Of a stretch of DNA of 32,000 bases, positions 3,352 to 24,240 are shown piece by piece. The stretch is taken from the NCBI RefSeq assembly GCF_014648915.1, contig NZ_BMSA01000020.1:26850-58849 (forward strand). Direction: 5' to 3'. Source of the stretch: Streptomyces phaeofaciens. Lineage in GTDB: Bacteria; Actinomycetota; Actinomycetes; Streptomycetales; Streptomycetaceae. Positions within the stretch are counted from its first letter, which is position 1. Every line of letters begins with the position of its first letter. The notes below the pieces were generated by a model. That model searched no databases, had not been told where the DNA came from, and saw nothing but the letters and a program-made list of their open reading frames with translations. The translations under genes and the position numbers were made by a program.

Positions 3352-4275
3352 CTACGACAGCTGCGCCTGCACCTGGCCGGCGATCAGTTCCAGGTGGTCC
3401 AGATCGCTCAGGTCGAGCATCTGGAGGTAGAAGCGGGTGGAGCCGATCTCGGCGTAGCGGCCGATCTTCTCGACGACCTCGGCCGGGGTGCCGGCGAGAC
3501 CGTTGGTCTTGAGTTCGTCGACCTCGCGGCCGATCGCGGCGGCGCGGCGGGCGACCTCCCGGTCGTCCTTGCCGACGCAGACGACGAGGGCGTTGGAGTA
3601 GGTGAGGGCGTCGGCCGCGCGGCCGGCCTCCTGTGCGGCGGCGCGGACCCGGCCGAACTGGGCGGCGGTGTCCTCGACGGAGGAGAAGGGCATGTTGAAC
3701 TCGTCGGCGTAGCGGGCGGCGAGCCTGGGCGTGCGGCTCGCGCCGTGGCCGCCGATCAGTACGGGGATCTTCTCCTGCGCGGGCTTGGGCAGCGCGGGCG
3801 AGTCCTTGAGCCGGTAGTGCGCGCCCTCGAAGTCGAACGTCTTGCCGACCTCCGTGCCCCACAGGCCGGTGACGATCGCCAGCTGCTCCTCGAGGCGGCC
3901 GAACTTCTCCTTCGGGAACGGGATGCCGTAGGCCGTGTGCTCTTCCTCGAACCAGCCCGCGCCCAGGCCGAGTTCGACGCGGCCGCCGGACATCTGGTCC
4001 ACCTGCGCGACCTGGATGGCGAGGACGCCGGGCAGCCGGAAGGTGCCGGCGGTCATCAGGGTGCCGAGACGGATCCGGCTGGTCTCGCGGGCGAGGCCGG
4101 CGAGGGTGATCCAGGCGTCGGTCGGACCGGGGAGGCCGTCGGCGGAGCCCATCCTGAGGTAATGGTCCGAGCGGAAGAAGGCGTCGAAGCCCAGGTCTTC
4201 GGTGGCCTTCGCCACGGTGAGGAGGGTCTCGTAGTCGGCACCCTGCTGGGGCTCGGTGAAGATACGGAGGTCCAT
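3352..4275 (-). CDS. LLM-class (luciferase-like) F420-dependent oxidoreductase
   Basis: Track ORF 3352..4473, trimmed to the ATG at 4275 with aggatggggg upstream as RBS. Sequence MDLRIFTEPQQGADYETLLTVAKATEDLGFDAFFRSDHY...GRVELGLGAGWFEEEHTAYGIPF is a typical LLM TIM-barrel. Confidence 0.88.
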   Translation of the reverse strand: MDLRIFTEPQQGADYETLLTVAKATEDLGFDAFFRSDHYLRMGSADGLPGPTDAWITLAGLARETSRIRLGTLMTAGTFRLPGVLAIQVAQVDQMSGGRVELGLGAGWFEEEHTAYGIPFPKEKFGRLEEQLAIVTGLWGTEVGKTFDFEGAHYRLKDSPALPKPAQEKIPVLIGGHGASRTPRLAARYADEFNMPFSSVEDTAAQFGRVRAAAQEAGRAADALTYSNALVVCVGKDDREVARRAAAIGREVDELKTNGLAGTPAEVVEKIGRYAEIGSTRFYLQMLDLSDLDHLELIAGQVQAQLS

Positions 4276-5490: not shown

Positions 5491-5817
5491 CTACGGGGCC
5501 GGGAACCTCCGCTCGTTGCGGTCGATCTTCGCGTCCAGGGCCGCCAGCGGATCCACGCCGAGGACCTCGCACAGTTGCAGCAGATAGGCGAGGACGTCGG
5601 CGACCTCGTCGCTCACCCGGTGCGCGCTCTCCGGGTCGTCCATGACGCGCGCCGATTCCTCCGGCGTCAGCCACTGGAAGATCTCGACCAGCTCGGAGGC
5701 CTCCACGCTGAGCGCGGCGGCGAGGTTCTTGGGGGTGTGGTACGGCTGCCAGTTGCGCGCGGCCGCGAACTCGGCCAGCCGGCGCTGGAGTTTCGCCACG
5801 TCGAGGTGTTCTGTCAC
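5491..5817 (-). CDS. MazG-like all-alpha nucleotide pyrophosphohydrolase (DCTPP1/YpjD-like)
   Basis: GTG start at 5817 overlaps the upstream stop as GTGA. Sequence begins (V)TEHLDVAKLQRRLAEFAAARNWQPYHTPKNLAAALSVEASELVEIFQW and carries the metal-binding pairs EASE (ExxE) and EVAD (ExxD). Confidence 0.85.
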   Translation of the reverse strand: MTEHLDVAKLQRRLAEFAAARNWQPYHTPKNLAAALSVEASELVEIFQWLTPEESARVMDDPESAHRVSDEVADVLAYLLQLCEVLGVDPLAALDAKIDRNERRFPAP

Positions 5818-7064
5818 GGATCCAGGTGTACCACCGTCACGCCGCGGGTCCGGGCGGCCCAGGAGGCGTCGCCGACCGCGCCGGTGCAGCGGATGTGTCC
5901 GCGCTCGGCCATCCGCACGGCCAGCCGCAGCAGTTCGGCGTGCTGGCGGACGTCGAGGCCCCGGTCGAGGTTGTCGGCGAGGAGGGTGAGCGTCTGCATC
6001 GCGGACGGCACCTCGCCGGCCGTGTCCAGGTCGAGGACGCCGGGGCCGGTGAGCAGGACCAGCGCGAGGGCGACGTAGCGCAGTTCGCCGTAGCCGAGCC
6101 GGGCCAGTTCCGTGCGGGTGCCGTCGCCGCGGTCGAGGAGGGCGCGGACCGTTCCGTCGCCGAGCGGCACGGCGAGCAGGTCCGTGACGGGCCGGGAGCA
6201 GCCGGCGGCGAGTGCGCCCACGAGCTGTGCGTGCCGCCGTACGCACTCCTCGCGGGTGCGCCAGAGTACGTCGGCGAGGTTGTCGCAGCCGCCGAGCAGC
6301 CGTCCGGTGCCGGTGGGCACCGGGGCGCCCATCCAGTCGGGCTGGGGGTCGCAGGCGAAGACGGAGCGCAGGGCCACCACCATCTGTTCGGCGGCGGCGA
6401 GCACCCGGCGCTGTCCGTCGGTCTTGCCGGCCACGCGCAGCGGCAGCAGTGCGGTGCCGAGCCGGTCGTCGGGGAGCGGGGCGCGGGTGACGGGCGCGGA
6501 TCCGGCGGTGTGCCAGGCGGCCTGCACCGTACGCCGCCCCGGGTCGCGCAGGGCGGTCTCCAGCAGGACGACGCCGCCCGCGCTCAGCCGCTCCCCCACG
6601 ACGCGCAGCTCGGGTTCGGCCTGTACGGCGACGTCGAGCCGGACCGGCCCCTCGGGTCCGTCGGCCGTACAGCCGATGCGGAAGCCGCGGCGCCGCTGGG
6701 CGTCGGGGCGGGCCCGCTCCGGCACACAGGCGACGGGGTCGGGGAACACCTCACCGAGCGGTGCGCCACCGCCGAGCCGGGCGAGCGCCTCGTAGGCCCG
6801 CAGGGCGGTGGTCTTGCCACTCCCGCTCCGCCCGGCGAACAAGGTCACCGTGCCGAGCGGGAACGCCGCCCGACGGTGCCCGGCGAAGGCGGAGAGCCGC
6901 AGTTCGGTGAGGCAGGGGCGGAGGTGCTGCTCGGGGGCCGGGTCGGGCGGGGCGGCCGACGGTGACGCCTGGGCGGGCACCCGGGCGGGTGCCATGGACG
7001 GCGTCGGGTCGGGGGACGCGGCGCGGGCTGCCGAGGAGGCGGGCGACGGGGGCGGCACGGACAT
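5814..7064 (-). CDS. ABC/SMC-like P-loop ATPase (AAA_15/21-type) with a P/A/S-rich N-terminal tail
   Basis: Shows the RecF/SMC-type N-terminal pattern LTELRLSAFAGHRRAAFPLGTVTLFAGRSGSGKTTAL, including Walker A GRSGSGKT. Signature-like LGYGELRYVALAL is present. The Walker B-like segment TLTLLADNLDRGLDVRQH has D-N where D-E is expected. Confidence 0.8.
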   Translation of the reverse strand: MSVPPPSPASSAARAASPDPTPSMAPARVPAQASPSAAPPDPAPEQHLRPCLTELRLSAFAGHRRAAFPLGTVTLFAGRSGSGKTTALRAYEALARLGGGAPLGEVFPDPVACVPERARPDAQRRRGFRIGCTADGPEGPVRLDVAVQAEPELRVVGERLSAGGVVLLETALRDPGRRTVQAAWHTAGSAPVTRAPLPDDRLGTALLPLRVAGKTDGQRRVLAAAEQMVVALRSVFACDPQPDWMGAPVPTGTGRLLGGCDNLADVLWRTREECVRRHAQLVGALAAGCSRPVTDLLAVPLGDGTVRALLDRGDGTRTELARLGYGELRYVALALVLLTGPGVLDLDTAGEVPSAMQTLTLLADNLDRGLDVRQHAELLRLAVRMAERGHIRCTGAVGDASWAARTRGVTVVHLDP

Positions 7065-7152
7065 ATCCGGACCGTAGGACTCCGGGCGACTGCCGAACCG
7101 TTCCGCCCGCCCGGCTTCCTACGATCGGGCGACGCCGGGACGAATACGGCCA

Positions 7153-7318
7153 CCTTCACCCCGTCCGGGAAGGACGCGGCTCACCTTCACACCGTCCGGG
7201 ACGGACACGGCCGCCTTCACACCGCCCGGGACGGATGCGCGACCCGCCTTCACCCCGCCCGGGACGGACGCGGCCCGCCTTCACCCCTTCCGGGCTCGAA
7301 ACCCGGCCGCGTCCGTCA
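7153..7318. repeat. Array of five ~31-bp tandem repeats (periods 31/30/33/31; last unit degenerate)
   Basis: ccttcac recurs at 7153, 7184, 7214, 7247 and 7278. Each occurrence is followed by c(c/a)ccg(t/c)ccggga(c/a)gga(c/t)(g/a)cg, containing the small palindrome gtcc-g-ggac. A partial unit precedes at about 7131. The array lies between the SepF-like stop (7333) and the ATPase start (7064). Confidence 0.85.
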
Positions 7319-7332
7319 GGCCCGAGTCCCCG

Positions 7333-7713
7333 TCAGACCCCCGCCCCTGCCATGATCCCGCTCACCTCGGTGCCCGGCGGGGTCAGCAGGAAGACGTTGC
7401 GGTCCACGCGGTGCATTCCGCTCGCGAGGCCGAAGACCACGCCGGTGGAGAAGTCGAGGACGCGCTTGGCGACCTCGGTCTCCGCGCCGGTGAGGTCGAG
7501 GAGGACCGGGATGCCTGCCATCAGGGTCTCGGCGACCTCGCGGGCGTCCGCGAAGATGTTGACCCGCATGACGACGAAGCGGCGACGGGTCTCCGTCTCC
7601 GCGTCGGGCAGCGCGCGATGGCCCACCGCCGACGGCCAGGCGTCCCGACCACGCAACGGAACGACCTGGGCGAGCCCCTCCCACTGTTCATCGGTGACGT
7701 CGTATCGGTTCAC
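7333..7713 (-). CDS. sepF: SepF-family (DUF552) cell-division protein paralog, short form
   Basis: Core sequence is FVVMRVNIFADAREVAETLMAGIPVLLDLTGAETEVAKRVLDFSTGVVFGLASGMHRVDRNVFLLTPPG. GTG start at 7713 has gggggag as RBS. The track ORF extends to 7758. Confidence 0.8.
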   Translation of the reverse strand: MNRYDVTDEQWEGLAQVVPLRGRDAWPSAVGHRALPDAETETRRRFVVMRVNIFADAREVAETLMAGIPVLLDLTGAETEVAKRVLDFSTGVVFGLASGMHRVDRNVFLLTPPGTEVSGIMAGAGV

Positions 7714-8002: not shown

Positions 8003-8049
8003 GGCCATGCCGTCACGTGCCGTGCTGTCAGGCGACCGTCGCCGCGCCG

Positions 8050-8565
8050 TCAGGCGACCGTGCGGGTGAAGCGGAGCGTGGCCGTGACGGTGGTCAGGCC
8101 GCGCATCATGCCCATCTGGTTCCATCCGAGGCCGAACTCCTCGCGGTCCACGGTGAATTCGGCGGCCAGCGTGATCGCGTCACCGTCCACCTGCGTCACC
8201 TGTGCGGTGAGGGTGTGCGGGCGGCTGATGCCGCGGACGGTCAGCCGGCCGGACACGTGGACGGTGTCGCCGTCGCGGAGTTCGGCGGCGCGGACCGCGT
8301 AGGTGATCTCGGGGTGGTTCTCGGCGTCGAAGAAGTCGGCGCTGCGCAGATGTGCGTCCCGCTTGGCGTTCTTGGTGTCGAGGGAGGTCACGTCCAGGTT
8401 CAGGGTGCCGCTGGCGGATCCGTCGGGGCCGACCTCGCCCGCGCCGACGACCGAGGCGAAGGCTCCCTTGACGGTGACCAGGCCCCACATCGTCCGGTGC
8501 TTCAGGCCGACGGTGGAGGCGCCCGTGTCGAGCTGCCAGGTTCCGGTTTCCACGGCGACGGTCAT
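8050..8565 (-). CDS. YceI-family polyisoprenoid-binding protein
   Basis: Contains TSLDTKNAKRDAHLRSADFFDAENHPEITY and the beta-barrel pattern typical of YceI. Full-length ORF of 171 aa. Confidence 0.88.
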   Translation of the reverse strand: MTVAVETGTWQLDTGASTVGLKHRTMWGLVTVKGAFASVVGAGEVGPDGSASGTLNLDVTSLDTKNAKRDAHLRSADFFDAENHPEITYAVRAAELRDGDTVHVSGRLTVRGISRPHTLTAQVTQVDGDAITLAAEFTVDREEFGLGWNQMGMMRGLTTVTATLRFTRTVA

Positions 8566-8586
8566 GGTGATCCCTCACATCGATAG

Positions 8587-8664
8587 TCCAAATTTGGATG
8601 AGCCTGCGACGGTCCACGTTAGTCGGTAATCCAAATCTGAACAACCCGGTACTGCAAATTTGGA
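8587..8664. promoter_or_regulatory. Three AT-rich CCAAATTTGG-type palindromic boxes in the yceI/marR divergent region
   Basis: tccaaatttgga (8587-8598) is a perfect 12-bp palindrome. tccaaatctgaa (8630-8641) and tgcaaatttgga (8653-8664) are imperfect copies. They form an AT-rich island in GC-rich DNA. Confidence 0.6.
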
Positions 8665-8684
8665 CAACGGATAGAATCGACGGC

Positions 8685-9242
8685 ATGGCAGACCCCGAGG
8701 AGCACCCCAGCGACCTGCCCCAATGCCCCTCCATGCCGGGTACCGGCCTACTGCCCCCCGAGCTGCGCGCCTGGATGGTGCTGCTGGCCGCGACGGGCGC
8801 GGTGGAACAGCGGCTGCGCTCGGTGGTGAAGGAGCGGCTCGACGTCTCGCACGACGAGTTCCTGATCCTTTGCCTGCTGGCCGAGCACCCCCGCGAGGGT
8901 CTGCGGATGACCCGCGTGGCCGAGCTGCTGGGCCGCCCCAAGACCCGGCTCACCTACCAGATCGCCTGCCTCCAGCACGCCGGCCTCGTCATCCGCAGGT
9001 CGGCGTGCGGCGACAAGCGGGGCGTCGAGGTCGCGCTCACCGAGAAGGCCCGAGGCCTGCTGCGGGAGGCCTCCGGCGCACTCGCCGAGACGGTCGCCGG
9101 GGCGCTCGGCCATGTGATGGGGCCCGAACAGCGGGCCGCGGTACGCGGGTTGGTCCCGGGGCTGCACGAGGCCGCCCCGGCGACACCGGACGACCACCGG
9201 CAGACGCCGGCCCACCAGGAGGAAGCGCCGGCCCCCGGCTAG
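8685..9242 (+). CDS. MarR family transcriptional regulator
   Basis: Track ORF 8598..9242, trimmed to the ATG at 8685. The wHTH reads HDEFLILCLLAEHPREGLRMTRVAELLGRPKTRLTYQIACLQHAGLVIRRSACGDKRGVEVALTEKA. Confidence 0.85.
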   Translation: MADPEEHPSDLPQCPSMPGTGLLPPELRAWMVLLAATGAVEQRLRSVVKERLDVSHDEFLILCLLAEHPREGLRMTRVAELLGRPKTRLTYQIACLQHAGLVIRRSACGDKRGVEVALTEKARGLLREASGALAETVAGALGHVMGPEQRAAVRGLVPGLHEAAPATPDDHRQTPAHQEEAPAPG

Positions 9243-12048: not shown

Positions 12049-12273
12049 GGGGAGTCCTCGATGGATCGGTGCGGACGGACGAACGAGGGACGGGGGGCGC
12101 TCATTCTGACACGCGCACCTGGTGACGCCGTGGGGCCCGGGACACCACCCCATACCGCACCACCAGCCCCGTGCGCACCTCTATAACGGTACAAGACCCC
12201 TCAATTACGACACACCAAACTTGGAGTGCTCGTTTTCTTGAACTCTTCGTGTTTATGGAAGTAGGTTGTCTCC

Positions 12274-14951
<2,678 letters not shown>

Positions 14952-15072: not shown

Positions 15073-16131
15073 TCATGCCCCGGGCGCCAGCCCGAGCTCC
15101 CGAGCGCCCAGCGGCGCGAAGAACCGTTCCACGTCGGCGTCGGTGACCTCGGCGAGTGTCGCCGGGGACCAGCGCGGGTTGCGGTCCTTGTCGACGACCT
15201 GGGCGCGGACGCCCTCCACCAGGTCCGCGGTGGTCAGGGCGGCGAGGGAGACCCGGTACTCCTGGTCCAGGACCTGTTCCAGCGTGCCGAGCCGCCGGGC
15301 CCGGCGCAGCGCGACCAGGGTGACCTTGAGCGAGGTGGGCGACTTGGCGAGCAGGGTCTCGGCGGCCTCCTTGGCCGCCGGGTCGCCGTGGTCGAGGAGC
15401 CGTTCGACGATCTCCTCCACGGTGCCGGCGGCGTAACAGCCGTCGATCCACTCCCGCCGGCCGGCCAGCTCCCCCTGCGGCACGGCCCGCGCATGGCGGG
15501 CGAGGGCGTCGCGTACGGGGTGGGCGGCGAGGTCCTCCAGAAGGTGCGGGACCGACGCGGACGGTACGAAATGGTCGGCGAGCCCGCACAACAGGGCGTC
15601 GGCCGCGCCGATCTGAGCACCCGTCAGCCCGAGGTGGATGCCCAGCTCACCCGGCGCGTGGGCGAGCAGCCGGGTGCCGCCGACGTCCGGGACGAAGCCG
15701 ATGCCGGTCTCGGGCATCGCGACGCGCGACCGCTCGGTGACGATCCGGACGCTGCCGTGTGCGGAGATGCCGACGCCGCCGCCCATCACGATCCCGTCCA
15801 TGACGGCGACGTACGGCTTCGGGAAGCGGGCGATCCGGGCGTTCAGCCGGTACTCGTCGCGCCAGAACGCCGCCGAGGCCGTGCCGTCGCCGTCGCGGGC
15901 GTCGTCGTGGACGGCGCGGATGTCACCGCCCGCGCACAGTCCGCGCTCCCCCGCCCCGGTGATCACGACGGTCTCGACGGCCGGGTCCCGCTCCCAGGCG
16001 GTGAGCGCGCGGTCGATGCGGCCGACCATGTCGTGGTTCAGGGCGTTGATGGCTCGGGGGCGGTTGAGGACGAGGTGGGCGGCCCGGCCGGCCCGGTGCA
16101 GGAGAACGGGTTCCTCGGTGCTGCCGCTCAT
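15073..16131 (-). CDS. Enoyl-CoA hydratase/isomerase family protein (3-hydroxyisobutyryl-CoA hydrolase-like)
   Basis: Track ORF 15073..16209, trimmed to the ATG at 16131. Contains LNRPRAINALNHDMV, ITGAGERGLCAGGDIRA, VAVMDGIVMGGGVGIS and PETGIGFVPDVGG. Length is about 352 aa. Confidence 0.9.
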   Translation of the reverse strand: MSGSTEEPVLLHRAGRAAHLVLNRPRAINALNHDMVGRIDRALTAWERDPAVETVVITGAGERGLCAGGDIRAVHDDARDGDGTASAAFWRDEYRLNARIARFPKPYVAVMDGIVMGGGVGISAHGSVRIVTERSRVAMPETGIGFVPDVGGTRLLAHAPGELGIHLGLTGAQIGAADALLCGLADHFVPSASVPHLLEDLAAHPVRDALARHARAVPQGELAGRREWIDGCYAAGTVEEIVERLLDHGDPAAKEAAETLLAKSPTSLKVTLVALRRARRLGTLEQVLDQEYRVSLAALTTADLVEGVRAQVVDKDRNPRWSPATLAEVTDADVERFFAPLGARELGLAPGA

Positions 16132-16238
16132 CCCCACGCCTCCGCCGGCCCGCGGGCCACGATGTCGCACATGATCTCGTCGGTTCCTTCCAGGCTCCGG
16201 AGACCGCACAGGTCACAGGCGGCCCCCTGACCACCGTA

Positions 16239-16338
16239 ACCGCTGCGAGGGGGACGGCCGCGAGGGAGTGTCCACGGCCGCGAGGGCGACTGCCGCGAGC
16301 GAGCATTCACCGCCGCCACGGCGACTGCCGCGAGGGGG
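16239..16338. repeat. Five 15-bp direct repeats AC(G/T/C)GC(C/T)GCGAG(G/C)G(N)G in the divergent region upstream of the toxin operon
   Basis: accgctgcgaggggg (16239), acggccgcgagggag (16254), acggccgcgagggcg (16274), actgccgcgagcgag (16289), actgccgcgaggggg (16324). Confidence 0.75.
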
Positions 16339-16503
16339 CGCCCACCGCCCCCGCGCCGGCCCGGCACCGCCGGAGCAGACGCCTCCACCGCGGCGCGCCC
16401 CCTTGCCGGGGCCGGTGCGGGCCAACCTTCACGAGAACCACCCGCTCCCTCACCATCGTCCTGCTCTACGGTGCCAACAGGCCACGACCACCGGGGAGGA
16501 ACC

Positions 16504-16938
16504 GTGCAGCGGCGGAGGACGGAGCTTGCCGAGCGGATCGCCGGGCGGCGGGAGGGAGGTGACGACCCCCGTGCCCTGGTCGGTGAGATGAGGCGTTCGG
16601 TGCTTCTGGTGCCGGTGTCGGACGGGGGGCTGTGGTCGGTGCGTTCGGGCGGGGTGCGGTGGATCTGCGCCTTCACCGACGAGACCGCCCTGGCGCGGTT
16701 CGCCCTGCGCCACGCGCCGGGTGATCAGCCCATGGACTACGCGGCGTTGCTGGGCGCCCGCATCGTCGACGAGATCGTGCCCGCGCTGGGTGAGCCGGCC
16801 GGGCTCGCGGTCGACATCGCCACCGAGGACGGGTCGATGTTCTTCCCGCCGGTCGTCGGCATCGTCCCGGACGCGGTCGCCGTCGACGCGGGTGCGGGTG
16901 CGGGTGCGGGTGCGGCAGGAGAGGGGCCGCGGTCATGA
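16504..16938 (+). CDS. SseB-like small protein (tentative family), first gene of the Rhs operon
   Basis: GTG at 16504 follows ggggagga. Sequence RSVLLVPVSDGGLWSVRSGGVRWICAFTDETALARFA...GLAVDIATEDGSMFFPP resembles the SseB N-terminal domain pattern. The C-terminal tail is (AG)n. The stop overlaps the next start as ATGA. Confidence 0.75.
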   Translation: MQRRRTELAERIAGRREGGDDPRALVGEMRRSVLLVPVSDGGLWSVRSGGVRWICAFTDETALARFALRHAPGDQPMDYAALLGARIVDEIVPALGEPAGLAVDIATEDGSMFFPPVVGIVPDAVAVDAGAGAGAGAAGEGPRS

Positions 16939-17585
16939 GCGGTGAGGGAGCGGACCTTCGGCTCGGCAAGGAAGCCGTCGCGAAGTTCACGCAAGGGGTC
17001 GGCGCCACCATCGAGCAGCTCGGTGAACTCGGCGGCGCGACCGGTTCGGTGATGGGCAAGGGCTTCTCGGAGCTGGCCATGACCGGGATGGAGGCCGGAC
17101 ACCACGGCCTCTCGGTCGACTTCGAGGACTTCTGCGAGCGCTGGGAGTGGGGTGTGCGCGCCCTGGTGCACGACGCGAGCGAGATCGCGAACCGCCTCGG
17201 TCTGGCGGCGGGCACCCAGTGGGAGCACGACCAGTACGTGGCGGGCTCGCTGAAGGTGGGCGTCAACGCGCTGATGGGCGGCAATCCGCACGCGAGCGAG
17301 GAGGAGATCACCCAGCAGGACTGGGGCGATGTGTTCACGCCGGACTATCTGGACCCGGACTGGAGCGCCGAGTCGTGGGACAAGGCCGGTCAGGACATGG
17401 AGCAGACGTGGAAGGACACCGGCCGCACGGTGCTGACCGAGGGTCAGGGCGGCCGGCAGTCGGAGATGCTGAACGACGCGATGGGCATCTCCGACGACCA
17501 GTGGAACCAGGCGCTGGACGACACCTTCGGCCCGTCGCCGGAGGAACGCGCGCAGCAACAGCAGGGTGAGTCCGGGGGGAACTGA
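16935..17585 (+). CDS. Acidic, Trp-rich hypothetical protein (216 aa), possible WXG/Lap-like secretion partner
   Basis: ATG at 16935 overlaps the upstream TGA. The N-terminal roughly 100 aa look helical and include FEDFCERWEWGVRAL. The C-terminal half is D/E/Q/W-rich (QQDWGDVFTPDYLDPDWSAESWDKAG...DDQWNQALDD). The gene ends 2 nt before the Rhs start. Confidence 0.8.
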   Translation: MSGEGADLRLGKEAVAKFTQGVGATIEQLGELGGATGSVMGKGFSELAMTGMEAGHHGLSVDFEDFCERWEWGVRALVHDASEIANRLGLAAGTQWEHDQYVAGSLKVGVNALMGGNPHASEEEITQQDWGDVFTPDYLDPDWSAESWDKAGQDMEQTWKDTGRTVLTEGQGGRQSEMLNDAMGISDDQWNQALDDTFGPSPEERAQQQQGESGGN

Positions 17586-17587
17586 GC

Positions 17588-20500
17588 GTGGGAATCGGCG
17601 ACTTCATCAGTGACATCACGCCCGACTCGGTCGAGGACGCGGTCGAGGACGGTGTGGAGTGGGTCGGCAACCGGGTCGAGGACGCCGGGAACTGGACCGC
17701 GGACCGGCTGGACGACGCCGGCTGGGAGTCCGGCGCGGACTGGGTGCGCGAGCAGTCCCGTTCGGTCGCCAACCGGCTGGGCGCCGAGGTCGACGAGATG
17801 GACCTCGGGCAGACCGAGGACAAGACCAAGCTGATCTACGGCAGCGCGGACAAGATCCGCTCCACCGCCGAGAAACTCCGCGGCTTCCAGACGGCCTTCG
17901 ACAGCGCCGGCGAGGGCCTCAAGGGCCTGGACTCCTCCCGCCTCAAGGGCGAGACGGCCGGAGCGGTGCGCACCGCGGTGAGCACCCAGCCGCCCAAGTG
18001 GTTCACCGGCGCAGACGCCTGCACGAAGGCGGCCGCCGCGCTGGAGGCGTTCGCCGGCACCGTCACCTGGGCGCAGGGACAGGCGCAGACGGCGATCGAC
18101 CAGTGGAAGAAGGGCGTCAAGGCCTCCGAGGACGCCGCCGACGCCCACCGCAAGAAGGTCGACGACTACAACAGCGCCGTCGACCGCTACAACGCCCAGC
18201 CCTCCGACAAACGCGACCCGGCCACCCTGCCTCCCAAGCCCGCCGCGACGTTCGACGATCCGGGCAAGAAGCTGATGCAGGACGCCCAGGACCTCCTCGC
18301 CGAGGCCCGAAAGCAGCGCAACTCGACGGCGGAGACCGCGCGTACGGCCGTCGCCGCCGCCCGCGACATGGCCCCGAAGAAGCCGGACTACGCCGATCAA
18401 CTGGGCGACGGCTTCGCAGAGTTGCAGATCATGGGCGACCATGTCGGCGGCGGCATCATCAAGGGCACGGCCGGCATCCTGAACTTCGTCCGCAGCGTGA
18501 ACCCGATGGACCCGTACAACATCACGCATCCGGCCGAGTACGCCACGTCGCTGAACAGCCTGGCCGCGGGTCTGGTGGTCGCCGCCAACGACCCGGTCGG
18601 CACCGGCAAGCAGATGATCGGCGACTTCATGAAGGACCCGGCGGAGGGCTTCGGCCGGCTGATCCCCGACCTGGCACTGACGGCCGCCACCGGAGGCGGC
18701 GGCGCCGCCGTGAAGGGCGTGCGCATCGCCGAGGAGGCCGCCGACGCCGCACGGCTGCGCAGACTGCTCGACGACGCCCCGGACGGCACCCACCGTCGGC
18801 CGGACGGTGAGCGCGTCACCGACGGCACGGACCCGGTGGACCTCGCCTCGGGCCGGATGTACCTGCCCCAGACCGACCTCGCGGTCCCGGGCGTCCTGCC
18901 CCTGGTGTTCACCCGCCGCACCGAGTCGGGCTGCACGGCCGGCCGTTTCCTCGGCGTCTCCTGGACCTCCACGGTCGACGAGCGGCTGGAGATCGACGCC
19001 ATCGGCGTCGTCCACGTCACCGCCGACGGTCTGCTCGTCCCCTACCCGCACCCGGTCCCCGGCCTGCCCACCCGGCCGCAGTCGGGCCGCTCCCGCACGC
19101 TCCTCTCCCGGGACGCGGACGGCGACTTCACCCTCACCGACCCCGACACCGGCCTGACCCGCCACTTCACCGCCCCGCCCGGAGGCGAGCCGGGCGGCGA
19201 CGGCACGGCCTGGCTGTCCACCGTCGCCGAGCCCAACGGCCACACCCTCACCGTCGACCGCGGCGAGGACGGCCTGCCGCTGGCGCTCGTCCACTCGGCG
19301 GGCCACCGGGTGACACTGACCACGGCCGAAGGCCTGGTCACCGCCCTGTCCCTGGCCGGCGCGGGCGAGAACGGCGCGGACCTGCCCCTGATGCACTACG
19401 GCTACCAGGACGGCGACCTCACCACGGTCACCAAGCCGTCCGGTGCCGTCACCACCTTCCTCTACGACGACCGCCACCGCGTCATCGCCTGGATCGACTC
19501 CAACGGAAGCCGCTACGACTACGTCTACGACGACCGCGACCGCGTCGTCGCCGAGGGCGGCGAAGCCGGCCACATCCAGATCACCCTCGCCTACACCGAA
19601 CCCGACCCCGAGACGGGTCACCGCGTCACCACGCTGACCACCGCCGAGGGGCACAGCACCCGCCATCTCATCGGCCCCGGCTGCCGCGTCCTGGCCACCA
19701 CGGATCCGCTCGGTCACACCACCCGGTTCACCTACGACACCCGCGGGAACCTCCTCACCCGCACCGACCCGCTCGGCCGCACCACCACCCACACCTACGA
19801 CGAGAACGACCGTATGGTCGCGGTGCTCCGCCCGGACGGCAGCCGGCTCGCCATGAAACCGGGCCCGTTCGGGAGGTACACGGACCTCCACGCCCCGGAC
19901 GGCAGCCGCTGGCTCCAGAGCTTCGACGAGCGCGGCAACCGGGTGACGGTCACCGATCCGGCCGGCCACACGGTCCGGTACGCCTACGACGCCCGGGGAT
20001 GCCTGACCTCGATCACCGACGCGCTGGGAGCCGTCACCACGGTCCGCTGCGACGCCATGGGCCGGCCCGAACAGGTCGTCGACCCGGCCGGCGGGACCAC
20101 TCTGCTCCAGCGCGACGCCCTCGGAAACACCCACCACGTCACCGACCCCACGGGCGGCGTCACGCGTCTCGAGTGGGACGCGGACGGCCATCTGGTCCGC
20201 CGCGAGGCGCCGGACGGCGTCACCGAGTCGTGGACCTACGACGGCGAGGGCAACCGCCTCACCCACACCGACCCGGTCGGCGGGGTGTCCCGCTTCGAAT
20301 ACACCCACTTCGACCTGGTGGCGGCGCGCGTCCAGCCGAACGGGAGCCGGTACGAATTCGGGTACGACGCCTCGCTGCGGCTCGTCCGGGTCACCGACCC
20401 GCAGGGCGCGCGATGGACCTACGCGTACGACGCGGCCGGCCGCACGGTGTCGGAGACCGACTTCGACGGCCGCACCCTCCGCTACCGCCTCGACGCCGCC

Positions 20501-22363
20501 GGACAGCTCGTCTCCCGAACCGACGCGCTCGGCCACGTCATCTCCTTCGAGCGGGACCAGCTCGGCCAGGTGATCCGGAAGGACGCCGACGGCCAGGTGA
20601 CCACCTACGGCTACGACCGGGCCGGACGTCTCCTCCAGGCGTCCGGCCCGGACAGCGAGCTGCTCTACACCTACGACCGCCGGGGACGGGTCAAGTCCGA
20701 ACTCGTCGACGGCCGCGTCATGAGCTACGCGTACAACGCCGCGGGCCGCCGCATCCGCCGCATCACCCCCACCGGCCACGTGACCACGTACGCCTACGAC
20801 GCCAGTGGCCGTCCCGAGCGCCTGACCTCCGGAGGGTCCCCGGTCGTCTTCGCCCATGACGTCGCGGGTCGTGAGACGGCCCGTGTCTTCGCGGACTTCA
20901 CCGACCCTCTCACCGTCACCTCGGCCTGGGACGAGGCCGGCCGGCTCTCCGCCAGCCACCTGACCGCCGGCGGCCGCACCCTCAACAGCCGTGCCTACTC
21001 CTACCGCCCGGACGGCCACCTCAGCTCGGTCAGCGACCTCTTGTCGGGCACCCGCACCTTCGACCTGGACGCGGTCGGCCACGTCACCGCCGTCCACGCG
21101 CAGGGGTGGACCGAGCGGTACGCCTACGACGCGAGCGGCAACCTGACCGAGGCGTCCTGGCCCGCCTCCCACCCCGGCAACGAAGCCACAGGACCGCGGA
21201 CCTACGCCGGCACGGCGATCACCCGCGCCGGAGCGGTCCGCTTCGAACACGACGCCCTCGGCCGCATCACCCTGCGGCAGAAGACCCGCCTGTCCCGCCG
21301 ACCCGACACCTGGCGCTACGCGTGGGACGCCGAGAACCGGCTCACCTCGGTGATCACCCCGGACGGCGCCCGTTGGCGCTACCGCTACGATCCGCTGGGC
21401 CGCCGCGTCGCCAAGCAGCGTCTGGCGGACGACGAGACCGTGGTGGAGGAGACCCGGTTCGCATGGGACGGCATGACCCTCTGCGAACAGACCGTTCACC
21501 ACCCGGACCTGCCCAGCGCGGTCGCCCTCACCTGGGACCACCGGTCCGGCGTCCCCCTCTCGCAGACCGAACGCCTCCTCACGGCGGACACCCGGCAGGA
21601 GGAGGTGGACCGGCGCTTCTTCGCCATCGCCACCGACCTCGTCGGAACCCCCACCGAGCTGATCGGCCAGGACGGCGACATCGCCTGGCGCTCCCGCGCC
21701 ACCCTCTGGGGCACCACCGCCTGGAGCAGCTCCAGCACCGCCTACACCCCGCTCCGCTTCCCCGGTCAGTACTACGACCCGGAAACCGGCCTGCACTACA
21801 ACCTGTTCCGCCACTACGACCCGGAAACGGCGCGCTACCTCACCCCCGACCCCCTCGGGCTCGCTCCCGCGCCCAATCCCGTCGCCTACGTCCACAACCC
21901 CCACACCTGGTCCGACCCCCTCGGACTCAGCCCGTATCCGCGTGGCGAGAAGGGCAACCCCTTCGACAACCGCGCGGATGCGGAAAAGGCGGCGTTCGAC
22001 CTCGCCGGTGTTCGTCACGGCGAGGAACCCATCGCCGAGTGGGTGGTCACCGGGGACAAGCAGCTGAAGCACGTGCCGGGTTACGTCTATTCACCCGACC
22101 CGGCGCACTGGGGCAATTTCCGGCAGTTCGAAACCGAGAGCGGCTCGCGTGTGGTCGTCGAGCACACCCACGACCCGGCGGGCCCGCACTTCCATGCCGG
22201 AAAACCGAAGATCGACGACACCCGAGAGCTCGTCAACTTCGGCTGGGACAACGCGAGAGTGCAGCGTCCCGACGGCAGCCTCGGCTATCCGGAGTCCATG
22301 GAGCGGTATGCCAAGATAAACAAGGAGGGTGGCGATCATCACCTGTTCTACGAAGGCAACTGA
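17588..22363 (+). CDS. Rhs/YD-repeat polymorphic toxin with helical T7SS/LXG-like N-terminal domain and variable C-terminal toxin domain
   Basis: 1591 aa with a GTG start after gggggga. No Sec signal and no PAAR domain. The helical N-terminus contains VTWAQGQAQTAIDQWKKG, and DPVDLASGRMYLPQTDL lies at about aa 415. There are dozens of YD repeats, for example FTYDTRGNLLTRTDPLGRTTTHTYDENDRMV. The Rhs core end reads PLRFPGQYYDPETGLHYNLFRHYDPETARYLTPDPLGL...WSDPLGL, followed by a 144-aa tip. Confidence 0.95.
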   Translation: MGIGDFISDITPDSVEDAVEDGVEWVGNRVEDAGNWTADRLDDAGWESGADWVREQSRSVANRLGAEVDEMDLGQTEDKTKLIYGSADKIRSTAEKLRGFQTAFDSAGEGLKGLDSSRLKGETAGAVRTAVSTQPPKWFTGADACTKAAAALEAFAGTVTWAQGQAQTAIDQWKKGVKASEDAADAHRKKVDDYNSAVDRYNAQPSDKRDPATLPPKPAATFDDPGKKLMQDAQDLLAEARKQRNSTAETARTAVAAARDMAPKKPDYADQLGDGFAELQIMGDHVGGGIIKGTAGILNFVRSVNPMDPYNITHPAEYATSLNSLAAGLVVAANDPVGTGKQMIGDFMKDPAEGFGRLIPDLALTAATGGGGAAVKGVRIAEEAADAARLRRLLDDAPDGTHRRPDGERVTDGTDPVDLASGRMYLPQTDLAVPGVLPLVFTRRTESGCTAGRFLGVSWTSTVDERLEIDAIGVVHVTADGLLVPYPHPVPGLPTRPQSGRSRTLLSRDADGDFTLTDPDTGLTRHFTAPPGGEPGGDGTAWLSTVAEPNGHTLTVDRGEDGLPLALVHSAGHRVTLTTAEGLVTALSLAGAGENGADLPLMHYGYQDGDLTTVTKPSGAVTTFLYDDRHRVIAWIDSNGSRYDYVYDDRDRVVAEGGEAGHIQITLAYTEPDPETGHRVTTLTTAEGHSTRHLIGPGCRVLATTDPLGHTTRFTYDTRGNLLTRTDPLGRTTTHTYDENDRMVAVLRPDGSRLAMKPGPFGRYTDLHAPDGSRWLQSFDERGNRVTVTDPAGHTVRYAYDARGCLTSITDALGAVTTVRCDAMGRPEQVVDPAGGTTLLQRDALGNTHHVTDPTGGVTRLEWDADGHLVRREAPDGVTESWTYDGEGNRLTHTDPVGGVSRFEYTHFDLVAARVQPNGSRYEFGYDASLRLVRVTDPQGARWTYAYDAAGRTVSETDFDGRTLRYRLDAAGQLVSRTDALGHVISFERDQLGQVIRKDADGQVTTYGYDRAGRLLQASGPDSELLYTYDRRGRVKSELVDGRVMSYAYNAAGRRIRRITPTGHVTTYAYDASGRPERLTSGGSPVVFAHDVAGRETARVFADFTDPLTVTSAWDEAGRLSASHLTAGGRTLNSRAYSYRPDGHLSSVSDLLSGTRTFDLDAVGHVTAVHAQGWTERYAYDASGNLTEASWPASHPGNEATGPRTYAGTAITRAGAVRFEHDALGRITLRQKTRLSRRPDTWRYAWDAENRLTSVITPDGARWRYRYDPLGRRVAKQRLADDETVVEETRFAWDGMTLCEQTVHHPDLPSAVALTWDHRSGVPLSQTERLLTADTRQEEVDRRFFAIATDLVGTPTELIGQDGDIAWRSRATLWGTTAWSSSSTAYTPLRFPGQYYDPETGLHYNLFRHYDPETARYLTPDPLGLAPAPNPVAYVHNPHTWSDPLGLSPYPRGEKGNPFDNRADAEKAAFDLAGVRHGEEPIAEWVVTGDKQLKHVPGYVYSPDPAHWGNFRQFETESGSRVVVEHTHDPAGPHFHAGKPKIDDTRELVNFGWDNARVQRPDGSLGYPESMERYAKINKEGGDHHLFYEGN

Positions 22364-22395
22364 ACACCGTAGGGACCGATGAGGGGCCAGACATC

Positions 22396-22836
22396 ATGAA
22401 CGACCGGCAGGCACCGGAGTGGCGCGACACCCTTCGGCGCTGCGGACTCGTCGAGGTGACGGGGGAGACGGCGCCCGACGGCCCGCCGGTGAACGCCGCC
22501 ATCCACGCGGTCAGCGGATTCGAGGTGGAGCCGGTCGCCACCGTCCCCGCGTCCACCCCCCACGCCGCCGACGAGCTGGACGAGACGTGGCACCACCACG
22601 CCGTACAGGCGTCGCTGTACGGGGAGGGCGGCGATTTCCTCATCCTCCCGCCGGTACCCGGCGGGAGCAGGATCGGCTGGGTGCGGGTGAAGGACCCGCT
22701 CGGCAAGAACCTCCCGTCCCGCATTTCCGGCGTGACGGGTTCCCCCGAGTTCGTGGCCGTCTCGGTCGACGGCCGCCACCTGTGTGCCGCCTCGGTCGAG
22801 GAATCCGACTACTGGGTGGTCGTGCACGAATTCTGA
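22396..22836 (+). CDS. Putative cognate immunity protein (146 aa, cytosolic)
   Basis: ATG lies 32 nt after the Rhs stop and is preceded by gaggggc. It sits in-frame at the tail of track ORF 21106..22836. The protein begins MNDRQAPEWRDTLRRCGLVEV. No TM segment or signal peptide, and no family recognised. The call rests on position. Confidence 0.7.
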   Translation: MNDRQAPEWRDTLRRCGLVEVTGETAPDGPPVNAAIHAVSGFEVEPVATVPASTPHAADELDETWHHHAVQASLYGEGGDFLILPPVPGGSRIGWVRVKDPLGKNLPSRISGVTGSPEFVAVSVDGRHLCAASVEESDYWVVVHEF

Positions 22837-22868
22837 GGTCGCACGATCCTCATGGACGACGACCTGGC

Positions 22869-22892
22869 GGGCGGTGGAACGGGCCACCGCCC
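22869..22892. terminator. 9-bp GC hairpin between convergent immunity and methyltransferase genes
   Basis: gggcggtgg-aacggg-ccaccgccc. Confidence 0.4.
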
Positions 22893-22911
22893 CCGGCCGG
22901 AGAGCCGCGGG

Positions 22912-24240
22912 TCAGATCCCCTTCGCCACCGGCTCCAGAATCGCCACGCACTCCACGTGATGCGTCATCGGGAACAGATCGAACGCCCGCAGCGTCCGCA
23001 CCCGGTACCCCCCGTCCCGGAAGTACCCCAGATCCCGCGCCAACGCAGCCGGATCACACGCCACATAGGCGATCTTCCGCGCACCGAGCGACGTCAGTTG
23101 CTCGACCGTCTTCTTGCCGGCCCCCGCGCGCGGCGGGTCGAGGACGATCAGGTCGACCTCCGTGATGCCGGTGCGCGGGAGGACGCTCTCCACCTTGCCC
23201 TGCTCGATCCGGACGCGGTCGAAGCCGGCGAGGTTGTGCCGGGCGTCCTCGACGGCGCGCTTACCGGACTCGATGCCGAGGACCGCGCCCTTGTCGCCGA
23301 GGCGGTCGGCGAGGGCCCCCGCGAAGAGGCCGACGCCGCAGTACAGGTCGAGCGCCATGTCGCCCTTGCGCGGCAGCAGGCCCTGCATGACGGCCTTGAC
23401 CAGGGTGTCGGCGGCCATCGGGTGGACCTGCCAGAAACCGCCGCTGCCGACGCGGTGCGTACGGCCGTCGGCCCGCTCGCGCACGAAGGCGCGGCCGTGG
23501 ACGCGGTGGATGCCGCCGTCCTTCTCCTCGACGCGCATCACGGAGACCGGCTTGTCGAGTTCGACGAGGGGCAGGCGGGCGCCGGGCCGCGGCTCGAGGA
23601 TCACCATGCGGTCCTGGGAGCCCGTCGCGGCGATCGCCTCGACGGAGGCCATGCCGGACCAGTCACGGTTCTCGATACCGAGCTCGCTGACGCCGGGTGC
23701 CGCGATCATGCAGTGCTCGATCGGCTCGACCTCGTGCGAGCGGTGGCGGCGCAGCCCCGCGTTGCCGTCCGGGTCGACCGCGTACTGCACGCGCGTGCGC
23801 CACTGCGGTACCTCGCCGGCCGGCAGCTTGTCGCCCTCGGCCGGCATCACGGTGCCGTCCCAGCCGGCCTCCTCGGGGGTGAGCCCGGCGAGCCGCTGGA
23901 GCTGTTCGGCGATCACCTCGCCCTTGAGCCGGCGCTGGGCGCCGGGCTTGGCGTGCTGCCAGTCGCAGCCGCCGCAGCGGCCGGGGCCGGCGTAGGGGCA
24001 GGGGGCCTCGACCCGGTCCTTGGACGCGTCCAGGATCTGTACGGCGTCGGCGCGCAGGAAGCGCGCGCCCTCCTCGCCGTCCGTCACCCGGGCCACGACC
24101 CGCTCGCCCGGCAGCGCGTGCCGGACGAACAGCACCTGGCCGGAGTCGGTGCGGGCGATGCAGTGGCCGCCGTGGGCGACGGGGCCGATCTCGACCTCGT
24201 ACTCCGTCCCCACCAGCGTTTTCTTCGGTTCTTCCTGCAT
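22912..24240 (-). CDS. TRAM-domain class I SAM-dependent RNA (uracil-5) methyltransferase, RlmD/RumA-like (Rv2689c-like)
   Basis: Track ORF 22912..24291, trimmed to the ATG at 24240. The TRAM region reads EVEIGPVAHGGHCIARTDSGQVLFVRHALPGERV. The Fe-S Cys cluster is CPYAGPGRCGGCDWQH. SAM motifs are LDLYCGVGLF and DLIVLDPPRAG, and the catalytic region is IAYVACDP. Confidence 0.9.
   Translation of the reverse strand: MQEEPKKTLVGTEYEVEIGPVAHGGHCIARTDSGQVLFVRHALPGERVVARVTDGEEGARFLRADAVQILDASKDRVEAPCPYAGPGRCGGCDWQHAKPGAQRRLKGEVIAEQLQRLAGLTPEEAGWDGTVMPAEGDKLPAGEVPQWRTRVQYAVDPDGNAGLRRHRSHEVEPIEHCMIAAPGVSELGIENRDWSGMASVEAIAATGSQDRMVILEPRPGARLPLVELDKPVSVMRVEEKDGGIHRVHGRAFVRERADGRTHRVGSGGFWQVHPMAADTLVKAVMQGLLPRKGDMALDLYCGVGLFAGALADRLGDKGAVLGIESGKRAVEDARHNLAGFDRVRIEQGKVESVLPRTGITEVDLIVLDPPRAGAGKKTVEQLTSLGARKIAYVACDPAALARDLGYFRDGGYRVRTLRAFDLFPMTHHVECVAILEPVAKGI

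Follow-up and report, generated by a model that had tools for sequence, protein, structure and literature searches.

The C-terminal tip of a Streptomyces phaeofaciens Rhs protein is a predicted Tox-HNH-EHHH nuclease toxin encoded beside a probable immunity gene

The 144-aa toxin tip encoded at positions 21929..22363 (+ strand) of the window, the 32,000-nt stretch of Streptomyces phaeofaciens DNA analysed here, is by its sequence a member of Tox-HNH-EHHH (PF15657), a family of DNA-cutting toxin domains. We consider it probable that this tip is the payload of a Streptomyces Rhs toxin, that it works as a metal-dependent His-Me finger DNase and that it is blocked by the 146-aa protein encoded downstream. 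The tip comprises residues 1448-1591 of the Rhs protein (coding 21929-22360, then a stop codon), with an N-terminal extension ahead of the nuclease domain.

A Pfam HMM search of residues 1448-1591, which had been suggested as a check on the original prediction, matched the nuclease family PF15657 with 37.8 bits (E 2.4e-9) on the tip alone and with 33.1 bits in the whole Rhs protein, above the curated gathering cut-off of 25 bits. Tip residues 52-141 aligned onto profile positions 2-69 of 69; the tip clade additionally has 50 residues at its N-terminal end and an insertion at tip residues 107-124, both outside the Pfam model. Profile searching gave 87 relatives; relatives carry PF15657 and are named "HNH/endonuclease VII fold putative polymorphic toxin" by NCBI. 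Nearly all carriers have the domain at their C-terminus (median of 1.5 residues beyond it in 138 carriers), and in the Rhs protein the tip directly follows the Rhs core. The original prediction had titled the domain unclassified, a label that fails because the Tox-HNH-EHHH family was already named in 2012 (PMC3482391). Its guess of a His-Me finger nuclease of the HNH/EndoVII type is supported by the PF15657 membership and by H79, H87 and H89, which match by motif the residues mutated in TseI, an Rhs effector of Aeromonas dhakensis.

Across 138 homologous domains, H79 is conserved in 100%, H87 in 99%, H89 in 97% and D82 in 96%, and position 78 is E in 75% and D in 11% ([ED]H motif). E78-H79, D82 and H87-F88-H89 lie on a predicted catalytic beta-hairpin (tip residues 72-93; 22142..22207, + strand) delimited from the structural model and conservation. 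The original numbering of E78, H79, H81, H87 and H89 was correct in the translation. H81 had been counted among the key histidines; it is outside the family residues, since His occurs there in 7% of the domains and the usual residue is Asn. Further conserved residues had been overlooked, namely Y127 and the C-terminal H137-H138 pair (22337..22342, + strand; codons cat and cac), a candidate metal ligand by its conservation (87% and 89% respectively, the remainder being mostly gaps in truncated sequences). Because the Pfam match lies above the cut-off at E 2.4e-9 and the residues are near-invariant in 138 domains, the histidine arrangement of the tip is more than chance.

The Rhs polymorphic toxin gene (17588..22363, + strand) is an ORF of 1591 aa with Pfam and NCBIfam matches. 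The Pfam matches in the whole protein were T7SS_signal, DUF6531, RHS, RHS_repeat and Tox-HNH-EHHH. The YD/RHS shell gave 17 RHS_repeat matches (E 9.5e-96) and 17 matches to TIGR01643, and DUF6531 (PF20148, 70.2 bits) occupies residues 415-485 (18830..19042, + strand), N-terminal of the YD-repeat shell. On the strand opposite the Rhs gene, an ORF of 1542 aa (17444..22072) was rejected as a gene and regarded as a high-GC artefact. TIGR03696 (Rhs-associated core, 80.9 bits) covers residues 1373-1447, so that the Rhs-core match stops at the final L of the DPLGL that closes a predicted motif for autoprotease activity and cleavage, DPLG-x18-DPLGL (residues 1421-1447; 21848..21928, + strand), identified in the translated sequence. 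D1421 and D1443 of this motif are spaced by 22 residues, and the predicted cut falls between L1447 and S1448. The TseI autoprotease cuts in a DPLGL/S context, with catalytic D1407 and D1429 likewise 22 residues apart (PMC7170923). The motif points to autoproteolytic release of the tip after L1447. The translation of 21800-22400 (...YLTPDPLGLAPAPNPVAYVHNPHTWSDPLGL up to the predicted cut, then SPYPRGEKGNPFDNRADAEKAAFDLAGV...GSRVVVEHTHDPAGPHFHAGKPKIDD...GGDHHLFYEGN and the stop) was identical to the core end and tip sequence quoted earlier.

Two accessory genes stand upstream. An SseB-like gene of 155 aa is the first of the module (16471..16938, + strand; PF07179 SseB, 23.4 bits against a cut-off of 21), and its stop overlaps the start of a 216-aa gene (16935..17585, + strand; GC3 0.91) whose protein had no match in Pfam and NCBIfam. 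Of 46 related loci with the same N-terminal domain as the Rhs protein, 45 keep both genes in this order, and the 216-aa protein might be a secretion adaptor. The N-terminal domain itself, a putative trafficking domain, occupies residues 15-266 (17630..18385, + strand) and matched PF21725, called 'putative T7SS secretion signal' in Pfam, with 300.5 bits (E 1.5e-89). PDB sequence searches with this domain or with the 216-aa protein gave no matches. A literature search on PF21725 found no paper, and no experimental study was found on actinobacterial Rhs proteins that carry it. A simple promoter and terminator scan of 16100-23000 gave no matches, and such a scan is uninformative in a 72% GC genome.

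The Pfam name suggests that export is possibly through a type VII (ESX) system. The window contains no type VII apparatus genes, so the export route is read from one Pfam domain name; the identifiable neighbours are housekeeping genes (katG, ECH_2, a RumA-like methyltransferase, an APC permease, trkA and a two-component system). The toxin might be as proposed and yet leave the cell by another route or by lysis, the N-terminal domain being otherwise employed, for example in receptor binding. The absence of ESX genes from the window and of literature on PF21725 would fit such a release, as would 29 tip loci in which 6 kb or more of upstream DNA contains no homologue of the N-terminal domain; at least two of these have full Rhs trunks (L024 and L064), and others are fragments or non-Rhs carriers. 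However, the PF21725 match reaches 300 bits, the carrier at L071 has a WXG100-like N-terminus, and type VII substrates are commonly encoded far from the apparatus, linkage not being obligatory. Carriers of the Tox-EHHH clade were also described as having RHS repeats and T7SS-type (WXG/LXG) leaders (Zhang et al. 2012, PMC3482391). We regard release by a route other than type VII as unlikely, if still a serious alternative.

Activity of the tip can be judged against TseI, the sole characterised PF15657 member, a DNase that degrades plasmid DNA (Pei et al. 2020, PMC7170923). Its activity and toxicity were abolished by H1497A or by HFH1507-1509AAA (PMC7170923). By motif, TseI H1497 corresponds to tip H79 and HFH1507-1509 to tip H87-F88-H89, and we infer DNase activity for the tip. 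A nuclease of the same family could instead kill through RNA, or through RNA and DNA, rather than through DNA alone: the His-Me finger toxins Tke2 and Tke4 are tabulated as both DNase and RNase (PMC9990079), only one PF15657 member has been assayed, and the 50-residue extension and the 107-124 insertion of the tip clade lie outside the Pfam model. Since that one member degrades DNA and all of its mutated residues are conserved in the tip, we consider an RNA substrate quite improbable.

The tip differed from the trunk in composition. Its GC was 0.639 and its GC3 0.81 (trunk means 0.723 and 0.941 respectively), below the trunk minimum over all in-frame 432-nt windows on both measures (GC 0.676, GC3 0.903). 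The six 60-nt lines from 22021 to 22380 had 68, 58, 75, 57, 62 and 55% GC (mean 62.5%) and line 20401-20460 had 75%, in agreement with the hand counts made earlier. Tip GC and GC3 were also lower than in the trunk in 63-65 of 67 related loci. The tip lies right after a homologous Rhs core in at least 65 species genomes, mainly of Streptomyces and also of other Actinomycetota; carrier strains include S. aurantiogriseus JCM 4346 and S. flaveus JCM 3035. The same tip was found on other Rhs trunks, on PT-HINT trunks, on a WXG100_2/Gln_amidase (WXG100-type) protein and in orphan remnants. The low tip GC and GC3, here and in the related loci, and the several unrelated trunks bear out the idea of a lower-GC, exchangeable cassette. 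Sliding identity against 13 orthologous Rhs proteins resolved no sharp recombination breakpoint. In L013-L015, a divergent lineage, trunk identity was about 45% and rose gradually to 72-97% over the tip; as this rise suits exchange or stronger constraint alike, we claim no breakpoint.

The candidate immunity gene (146 aa; 22396..22836, + strand) begins 32 nt past the toxin stop and has GAGGGG 5' of its ATG. In 77 of 80 loci, from several actinobacterial genera, a same-strand homologue was present within 700 nt 3' of the tip; the gap to the tip had a median of 42 nt in related loci, and tip identity correlated with identity of the 146-aa protein across loci (Spearman 0.71). The protein had 69 homologues, and all those with a named source organism came from Streptomyces. 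At L019 the trunk is deleted and the 146-aa gene still adjoins the tip remnant. The gene table of the S. antibioticus locus L082 had suggested an Rhs with a different tip and an orphan immunity gene; this reading was dropped because alignment identified the tip there as the same one, at about 91% identity, with two paralogues of the immunity gene. Homologues were also found with no Rhs gene inside 7 kb. Such orphan and duplicated copies are a usual feature of immunity genes.

None of 40 homologues of the 146-aa protein matched a Pfam family. Immunity families gave no hit even at E up to 10, and the protein is neither Imm8 nor Imm50, the listed partners of Tox-EHHH. The AF2 model of the protein (pLDDT 90.3) had no structural neighbours in the PDB, and the GC3 of the gene (0.91) is host-like, unlike that of the tip. 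An unrelated conserved gene travelling with the locus could look like this, having neither a known immunity family nor a structural neighbour, a host-like GC3 and homologues away from Rhs genes. It would be hard to reconcile with the same-strand adjacency, short gap and correlated identity, with the retention beside the tip remnant at L019 or with the orphan and duplicated copies, and we consider it very improbable. The 146-aa protein is likely to be the immunity protein of the tip, and it would act by binding the tip directly.

The AF2 model of the tip (pLDDT 92.3) has strands at residues 72-79 and 87-93. The beta-hairpin of the original prediction was present in this model; its likeness to a His-Me finger found no structural counterpart, as Foldseek of the model against PDB and BFVD gave no matches to any such fold or to others. 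The model lacks a helix at the place expected for a beta-beta-alpha finger, and thus a confident model departs from the textbook layout. Comparison of the tip family with the colicin E9/E7 DNases and T4 endonuclease VII by hhalign gave a probability of 0.1, a value that carries no weight either way. Searching PDB chains with the tip sequence returned noise only (E above 0.3), and no solved structure was found for PF15657. Hits from a profile search against PDB chains were set aside, being only Rhs cores matched via trunk columns of the alignment. That the histidine cluster binds metal in a non-nuclease or catalytically dead domain, as the lack of a nuclease structural match and of a helix after the hairpin might suggest, is scarcely credible against a demonstrated DNase in the family, every conserved family residue intact in the tip and a paired immunity gene kept in most loci.

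The mechanism proposed for the DNase toxin builds on the family membership, residue conservation, cleavage motif and toxin-immunity synteny observed here. The SseB-like gene, the 216-aa gene, the Rhs gene and the 146-aa gene would be expressed as a four-gene module. The YD-repeat shell would enclose the tip, and an internal aspartyl protease (D1421, D1443) would cleave after L1447. The N-terminal domain, perhaps aided by the two upstream proteins, would export the Rhs protein, possibly via type VII (ESX). Once freed, the 144-aa domain would degrade DNA in a competitor cell, with H79 and the hairpin triad H87-F88-H89, together with D82, Y127 and H137-H138, as the predicted active and metal site. 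In the producer cell the downstream 146-aa protein would bind and block the tip.

TseI shares with the S. phaeofaciens Rhs protein the Rhs/YD shell, the DPLGL/S autoprotease motif, the PF15657 C-terminus, the EH and HFH residues and an immunity gene directly downstream. TseI comes from a Gram-negative bacterium and is delivered by type VI secretion, with an N-terminus that binds VgrG and a DUF4123 protein as chaperone, whereas the S. phaeofaciens protein has a PF21725 N-terminus and the SseB-like and 216-aa upstream partners; their tips measure 112 and 144 aa respectively. The Tox-EHHH clade of Zhang et al. has the same [ED]H, H, H motif and occurs in Actinobacteria, but its partners are Imm8 and Imm50 (PMC3482391), while the 146-aa partner matches no Pfam family. 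RhsB of Dickeya dadantii (HNH, PF01844) and Tse7 of P. aeruginosa (Tox-GHH2) belong to the same Pfam clan as the tip and follow the same logic of a polymorphic C-terminal DNase neutralised by a downstream immunity protein, but they differ in Pfam family and motif and are delivered by type VI secretion (PMC9990079). The type VIIb toxins of Bacillota, among them LXG toxins such as YxiD, the nuclease EsaD and a Listeria Rhs toxin associated with an EssC variant, also combine an N-terminal helical trafficking domain and small upstream partners with a toxin at the C-terminus and an immunity gene downstream. They are experimentally supported T7SSb substrates of firmicutes; for actinobacterial Rhs proteins with PF21725, no such work was found.

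Because the tip falls in a named family and a probable immunity gene lies next to it, the locus is an ordinary member of a known bacterial weapon. The tip by itself adds little: the toxin family it joins has had a name since 2012 and a demonstrated DNase since 2020. The system has modest value: the tip-Rhs arrangement recurs in at least 65 species genomes and its partner genes are kept in 45 of 46 loci, with no experimental study found. The cognate candidate immunity protein represents a family that Pfam lacks, and it has no neighbour among solved structures. The metal-site construction of the clade is of structural interest, given that no solved structure was found for PF15657 and that the model is off the beta-beta-alpha layout. 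Literature searching found no experimental example of antibacterial Rhs nuclease export by an actinobacterial type VII system. It is conceivable, though doubtful, that the module is such a system and that its immunity protein has an undescribed family and fold. On the same reading the EHHH domain may also represent a His-Me finger that lacks the helix, considered because the pLDDT-92 model has no structural neighbour.

The Rhs toxin gene (17588..22363, + strand) encodes a 1591-aa protein that is, judged by its predicted domain content, a complete Rhs toxin: a PF21725 T7SS_signal domain (residues 15-266, 300 bits), DUF6531 (residues 415-485), 17 RHS repeats, the RHS core motif and the Rhs-associated core TIGR03696 (residues 1373-1447), whose match ends at the final L of the second DPLGL. 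The C-terminal part of the translation runs from ...YLTPDPLGLAPAPNPVAYVHNPHTWSDPLGL to SPYPRGEKGN..., then through ...GSRVVVEHTHDPAGPHFHAGKPKIDD... to GGDHHLFYEGN*, reproducing exactly the ending quoted in the original prediction; its coordinates for the 144-aa tip (21929-22363) were also right, as was its numbering of tip residues E78, H79, H81, H87 and H89. A 1542-aa ORF antisense to the Rhs gene (17444-22072, - strand) is not a gene; it failed the codon-position GC filter for likely genes and is a stop-free stretch typical of high-GC DNA.

The tip had been described as unclassified. This was wrong: in a Pfam HMM search the tip alone matched PF15657 (Tox-HNH-EHHH) with 37.8 bits (E 2.4e-9), above the curated cut-off of 25 bits, and tip residues 52-141 covered profile positions 2-69 of 69. 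An initial search with the tip found only 7 close relatives. A profile built from them retrieved 87 proteins, the majority already with PF15657 and many bearing the NCBI name "HNH/endonuclease VII fold putative polymorphic toxin". Exhaustive profile searching of 1.84 billion cluster representatives gave 162 matches at E <=0.001 and 102 at E <=1e-10, and by these sequence matches the family is real but small. The clade was defined in 2012 by Zhang et al., who described an HNH/EndoVII fold and the motifs [ED]H, H and H, in Actinobacteria and other phyla, on RHS or filamentous-repeat carriers linked to T2SS, T5SS, T6SS, T7SS (WXG, LXG) and TcdB/TcaC (PMC3482391). Jablonska et al. (2017) list it as group 25 of the His-Me finger superfamily (PMC5714182).

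Conservation was analysed with an HMM built from the tip-domain columns, to which 138 domain hits were aligned. Its carriers have the domain at their extreme C-terminal end, followed by a median of 1.5 residues. H79 (100%), H87 and G62 (both 99%), H89 (97%), D82 (96%) and Y127 (94%) are nearly invariant; E78 is E in 75% and D in 11%; H138 (89%) and H137 (87%) are also conserved, and most of the sequences that lack them are truncated and have a gap there. Consequently, three of the four histidines highlighted in the original prediction (H79, H87 and H89) are family residues, while H81 is not (7% conserved, usually Asn), and the conserved C-terminal HH (H137-H138) and Y127 were absent from its residue picks. 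The AlphaFold2 model of the tip (45-sequence alignment) was confident (pLDDT 92.3, pTM 0.86), with a predicted helix at 15-26, predicted strands at 36-41, 62-69, 72-79 and 87-93 and beyond that only short strands; in the predicted hairpin, E78-H79 closes one strand and H87-F88-H89 opens the next. No structural match was obtained with this model, so that the HNH/EndoVII fold is assigned from membership in the Pfam family and from published classifications.

TseI of Aeromonas dhakensis, a 1545-aa Rhs effector with a C-terminal pfam15657 domain, is a DNase active on plasmid DNA; either of the mutations H1497A and HFH(1507-1509)AAA abolishes this activity, toxicity to E. coli and prey killing (PMC7170923). 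TseI cleaves itself after ...WVDPLGL, between L1433 and S1434, using D1407 and D1429, and is bound by TsiI, the protective protein encoded directly downstream (PMC7170923). Like TseI, the window tip has an E-H motif followed eight residues later by H-F-H; the full protein has D1421 and D1443, with the same spacing of 22 residues, and a predicted cut at ...WSDPLGL|S (L1447|S1448). This correspondence is one of motifs and a shared family model and not of direct alignment. PF15657 membership and the motif match to the TseI DNase residues support the nuclease reading proposed in the original prediction, and the window protein is an Rhs-borne Tox-HNH-EHHH family member, a predicted DNase, with a candidate immunity gene.

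The candidate, a 146-aa ORF (22396-22836, + strand), starts 32 nt past the toxin stop and is preceded by a GAGGGG motif. The protein has 69 homologues (48-88% identity), of which only one is named ("PH domain-containing"); wherever a source organism is given, it is a Streptomyces. None of 40 family members searched against Pfam matched any family, including Imm8 and Imm50, the immunity partners given for the Tox-EHHH clade (PMC3482391). Its structural model was confident (pLDDT 90.3) and had no structural neighbour in the PDB. Scanning species-representative genomes with the tip profile gave 80 loci, of which 77 encode a homologue of the 146-aa protein on the same strand <=700 nt downstream of the tip (median gap 42 nt); its identity to the window copy correlates with that of the tip (Spearman 0.71). 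The S. antibioticus locus L082, with Rhs and tip as in the window, has two paralogues (3792-4226 and 7001-7438; 78% and 76% identical to the window copy), one adjoining the tip and the other 3 kb on, with an 841-aa CLIPPER-repeat gene lying between them. In two further Streptomyces genomes an orphan homologue (63%; L084:7001-7447) has no Rhs gene as a neighbour within 7 kb. Such behaviour is what one expects of an immunity gene, the product of which would bind the tip and protect against it.

The window has a GC content of approximately 72%. The nearest related loci are from Streptomyces, the top one being S. aurantiogriseus (94% identity in the tip, 90% in the adjoining methyltransferase). 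The hand GC counts in the original prediction were accurate on recount, and its lower-GC tip was borne out: tip GC (0.639) and GC3 (0.81) are below every same-length trunk window (minima 0.676 and 0.903). Tip GC is lower than adjoining core GC in 65/67 loci and GC3 in 63/67, with mean GC3 across loci of 0.71 in the tip, 0.74 in the immunity gene and 0.87 in the core. In the window, GC3 is 0.91 (host-like) in the immunity gene versus 0.81 in the tip; the two values are low together in the majority of related loci.

Carriers are varied. The window and most Streptomyces have the PF21725-DUF6531-Rhs trunk; loci L024 and L064 have DUF6531-Rhs trunks of approximately 1870 aa without PF21725; proteins P0006, P0013 and P0026 have PT-HINT trunks; and Paractinoplanes ferrugineus (L071:2709-8366) has a 1885-aa WXG100_2 and Gln_amidase protein without Rhs repeats, possibly a multi-toxin substrate of type VII secretion. 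Remnants were also found. In Streptomyces thermolineatus (L063, 1784-8844) a full 1607-aa Rhs gene ends in another tip, one that matches no Pfam family, and an orphan EHHH tip fragment (8009-8407) lies approximately 1.4 kb downstream, beyond masked N bases, followed by an immunity homologue (8452-8844). In Streptomyces bobili (L019, NZ_MUBA01000193, 6662-7841) the entire trunk is missing and a truncated SseB-like gene is fused to a tip fragment that corresponds to residues 43-143 of the window tip at 93% identity and retains EH, HFH and HH, followed by an intact immunity homologue and a RumA-like methyltransferase gene as in the window; this looks like an approximately 5-kb deletion that spared the immunity gene. 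A third copy (L055) is disrupted by a transposase. Sliding identity between lineages showed tips better conserved than trunks and no sharp breakpoint. The variety of architectures, and not a mapped junction, supports tip exchange between trunks.

Upstream of the Rhs gene lie two small genes (16471-17585, + strand), one SseB-like (155 aa) and one of 216 aa without family match, which are kept in order in 45 of the 46 loci with a PF21725 N-terminus. In the window, each stop overlaps or abuts the next start, up to that of the Rhs gene, suggesting one four-gene operon; the two products may act on the Rhs protein as chaperones or secretion adaptors. There are no ESX apparatus genes within the 32-kb window, and no paper on PF21725 or actinobacterial Rhs-T7SS toxins was found in the literature. 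In a 2026 review, the antibacterial T7SS toxins described are all from Bacillota, and umbrella toxins are cited for Streptomyces. Type VII export is thus a reasonable prediction from the name of the PF21725 domain.

The remainder of the window consists of housekeeping genes: SDR, TetR, LysR, luciferase-like, SepF, YceI, MarR, MFS and ECH_2 genes, a RumA-like methyltransferase, an APC permease, two trkA genes, DUF3159 and a two-component system. A Fur-family regulator (PF01475) is located directly upstream of, and overlaps, a catalase-peroxidase (PF00141) at 12265-14951, the furA-katG order familiar in actinobacteria. A 434-aa ORF (5814-7118, - strand) has a strong coding signal (GC3 0.92) and no Pfam family above threshold, its sole match being a sub-threshold P-loop hit (ABC_tran).

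The tip itself belongs to a named family, and what remains new is outside it: an uncharacterised delivery module in Streptomyces, an immunity family without annotation or structural neighbour, and the absence of a solved structure for the nuclease clade.
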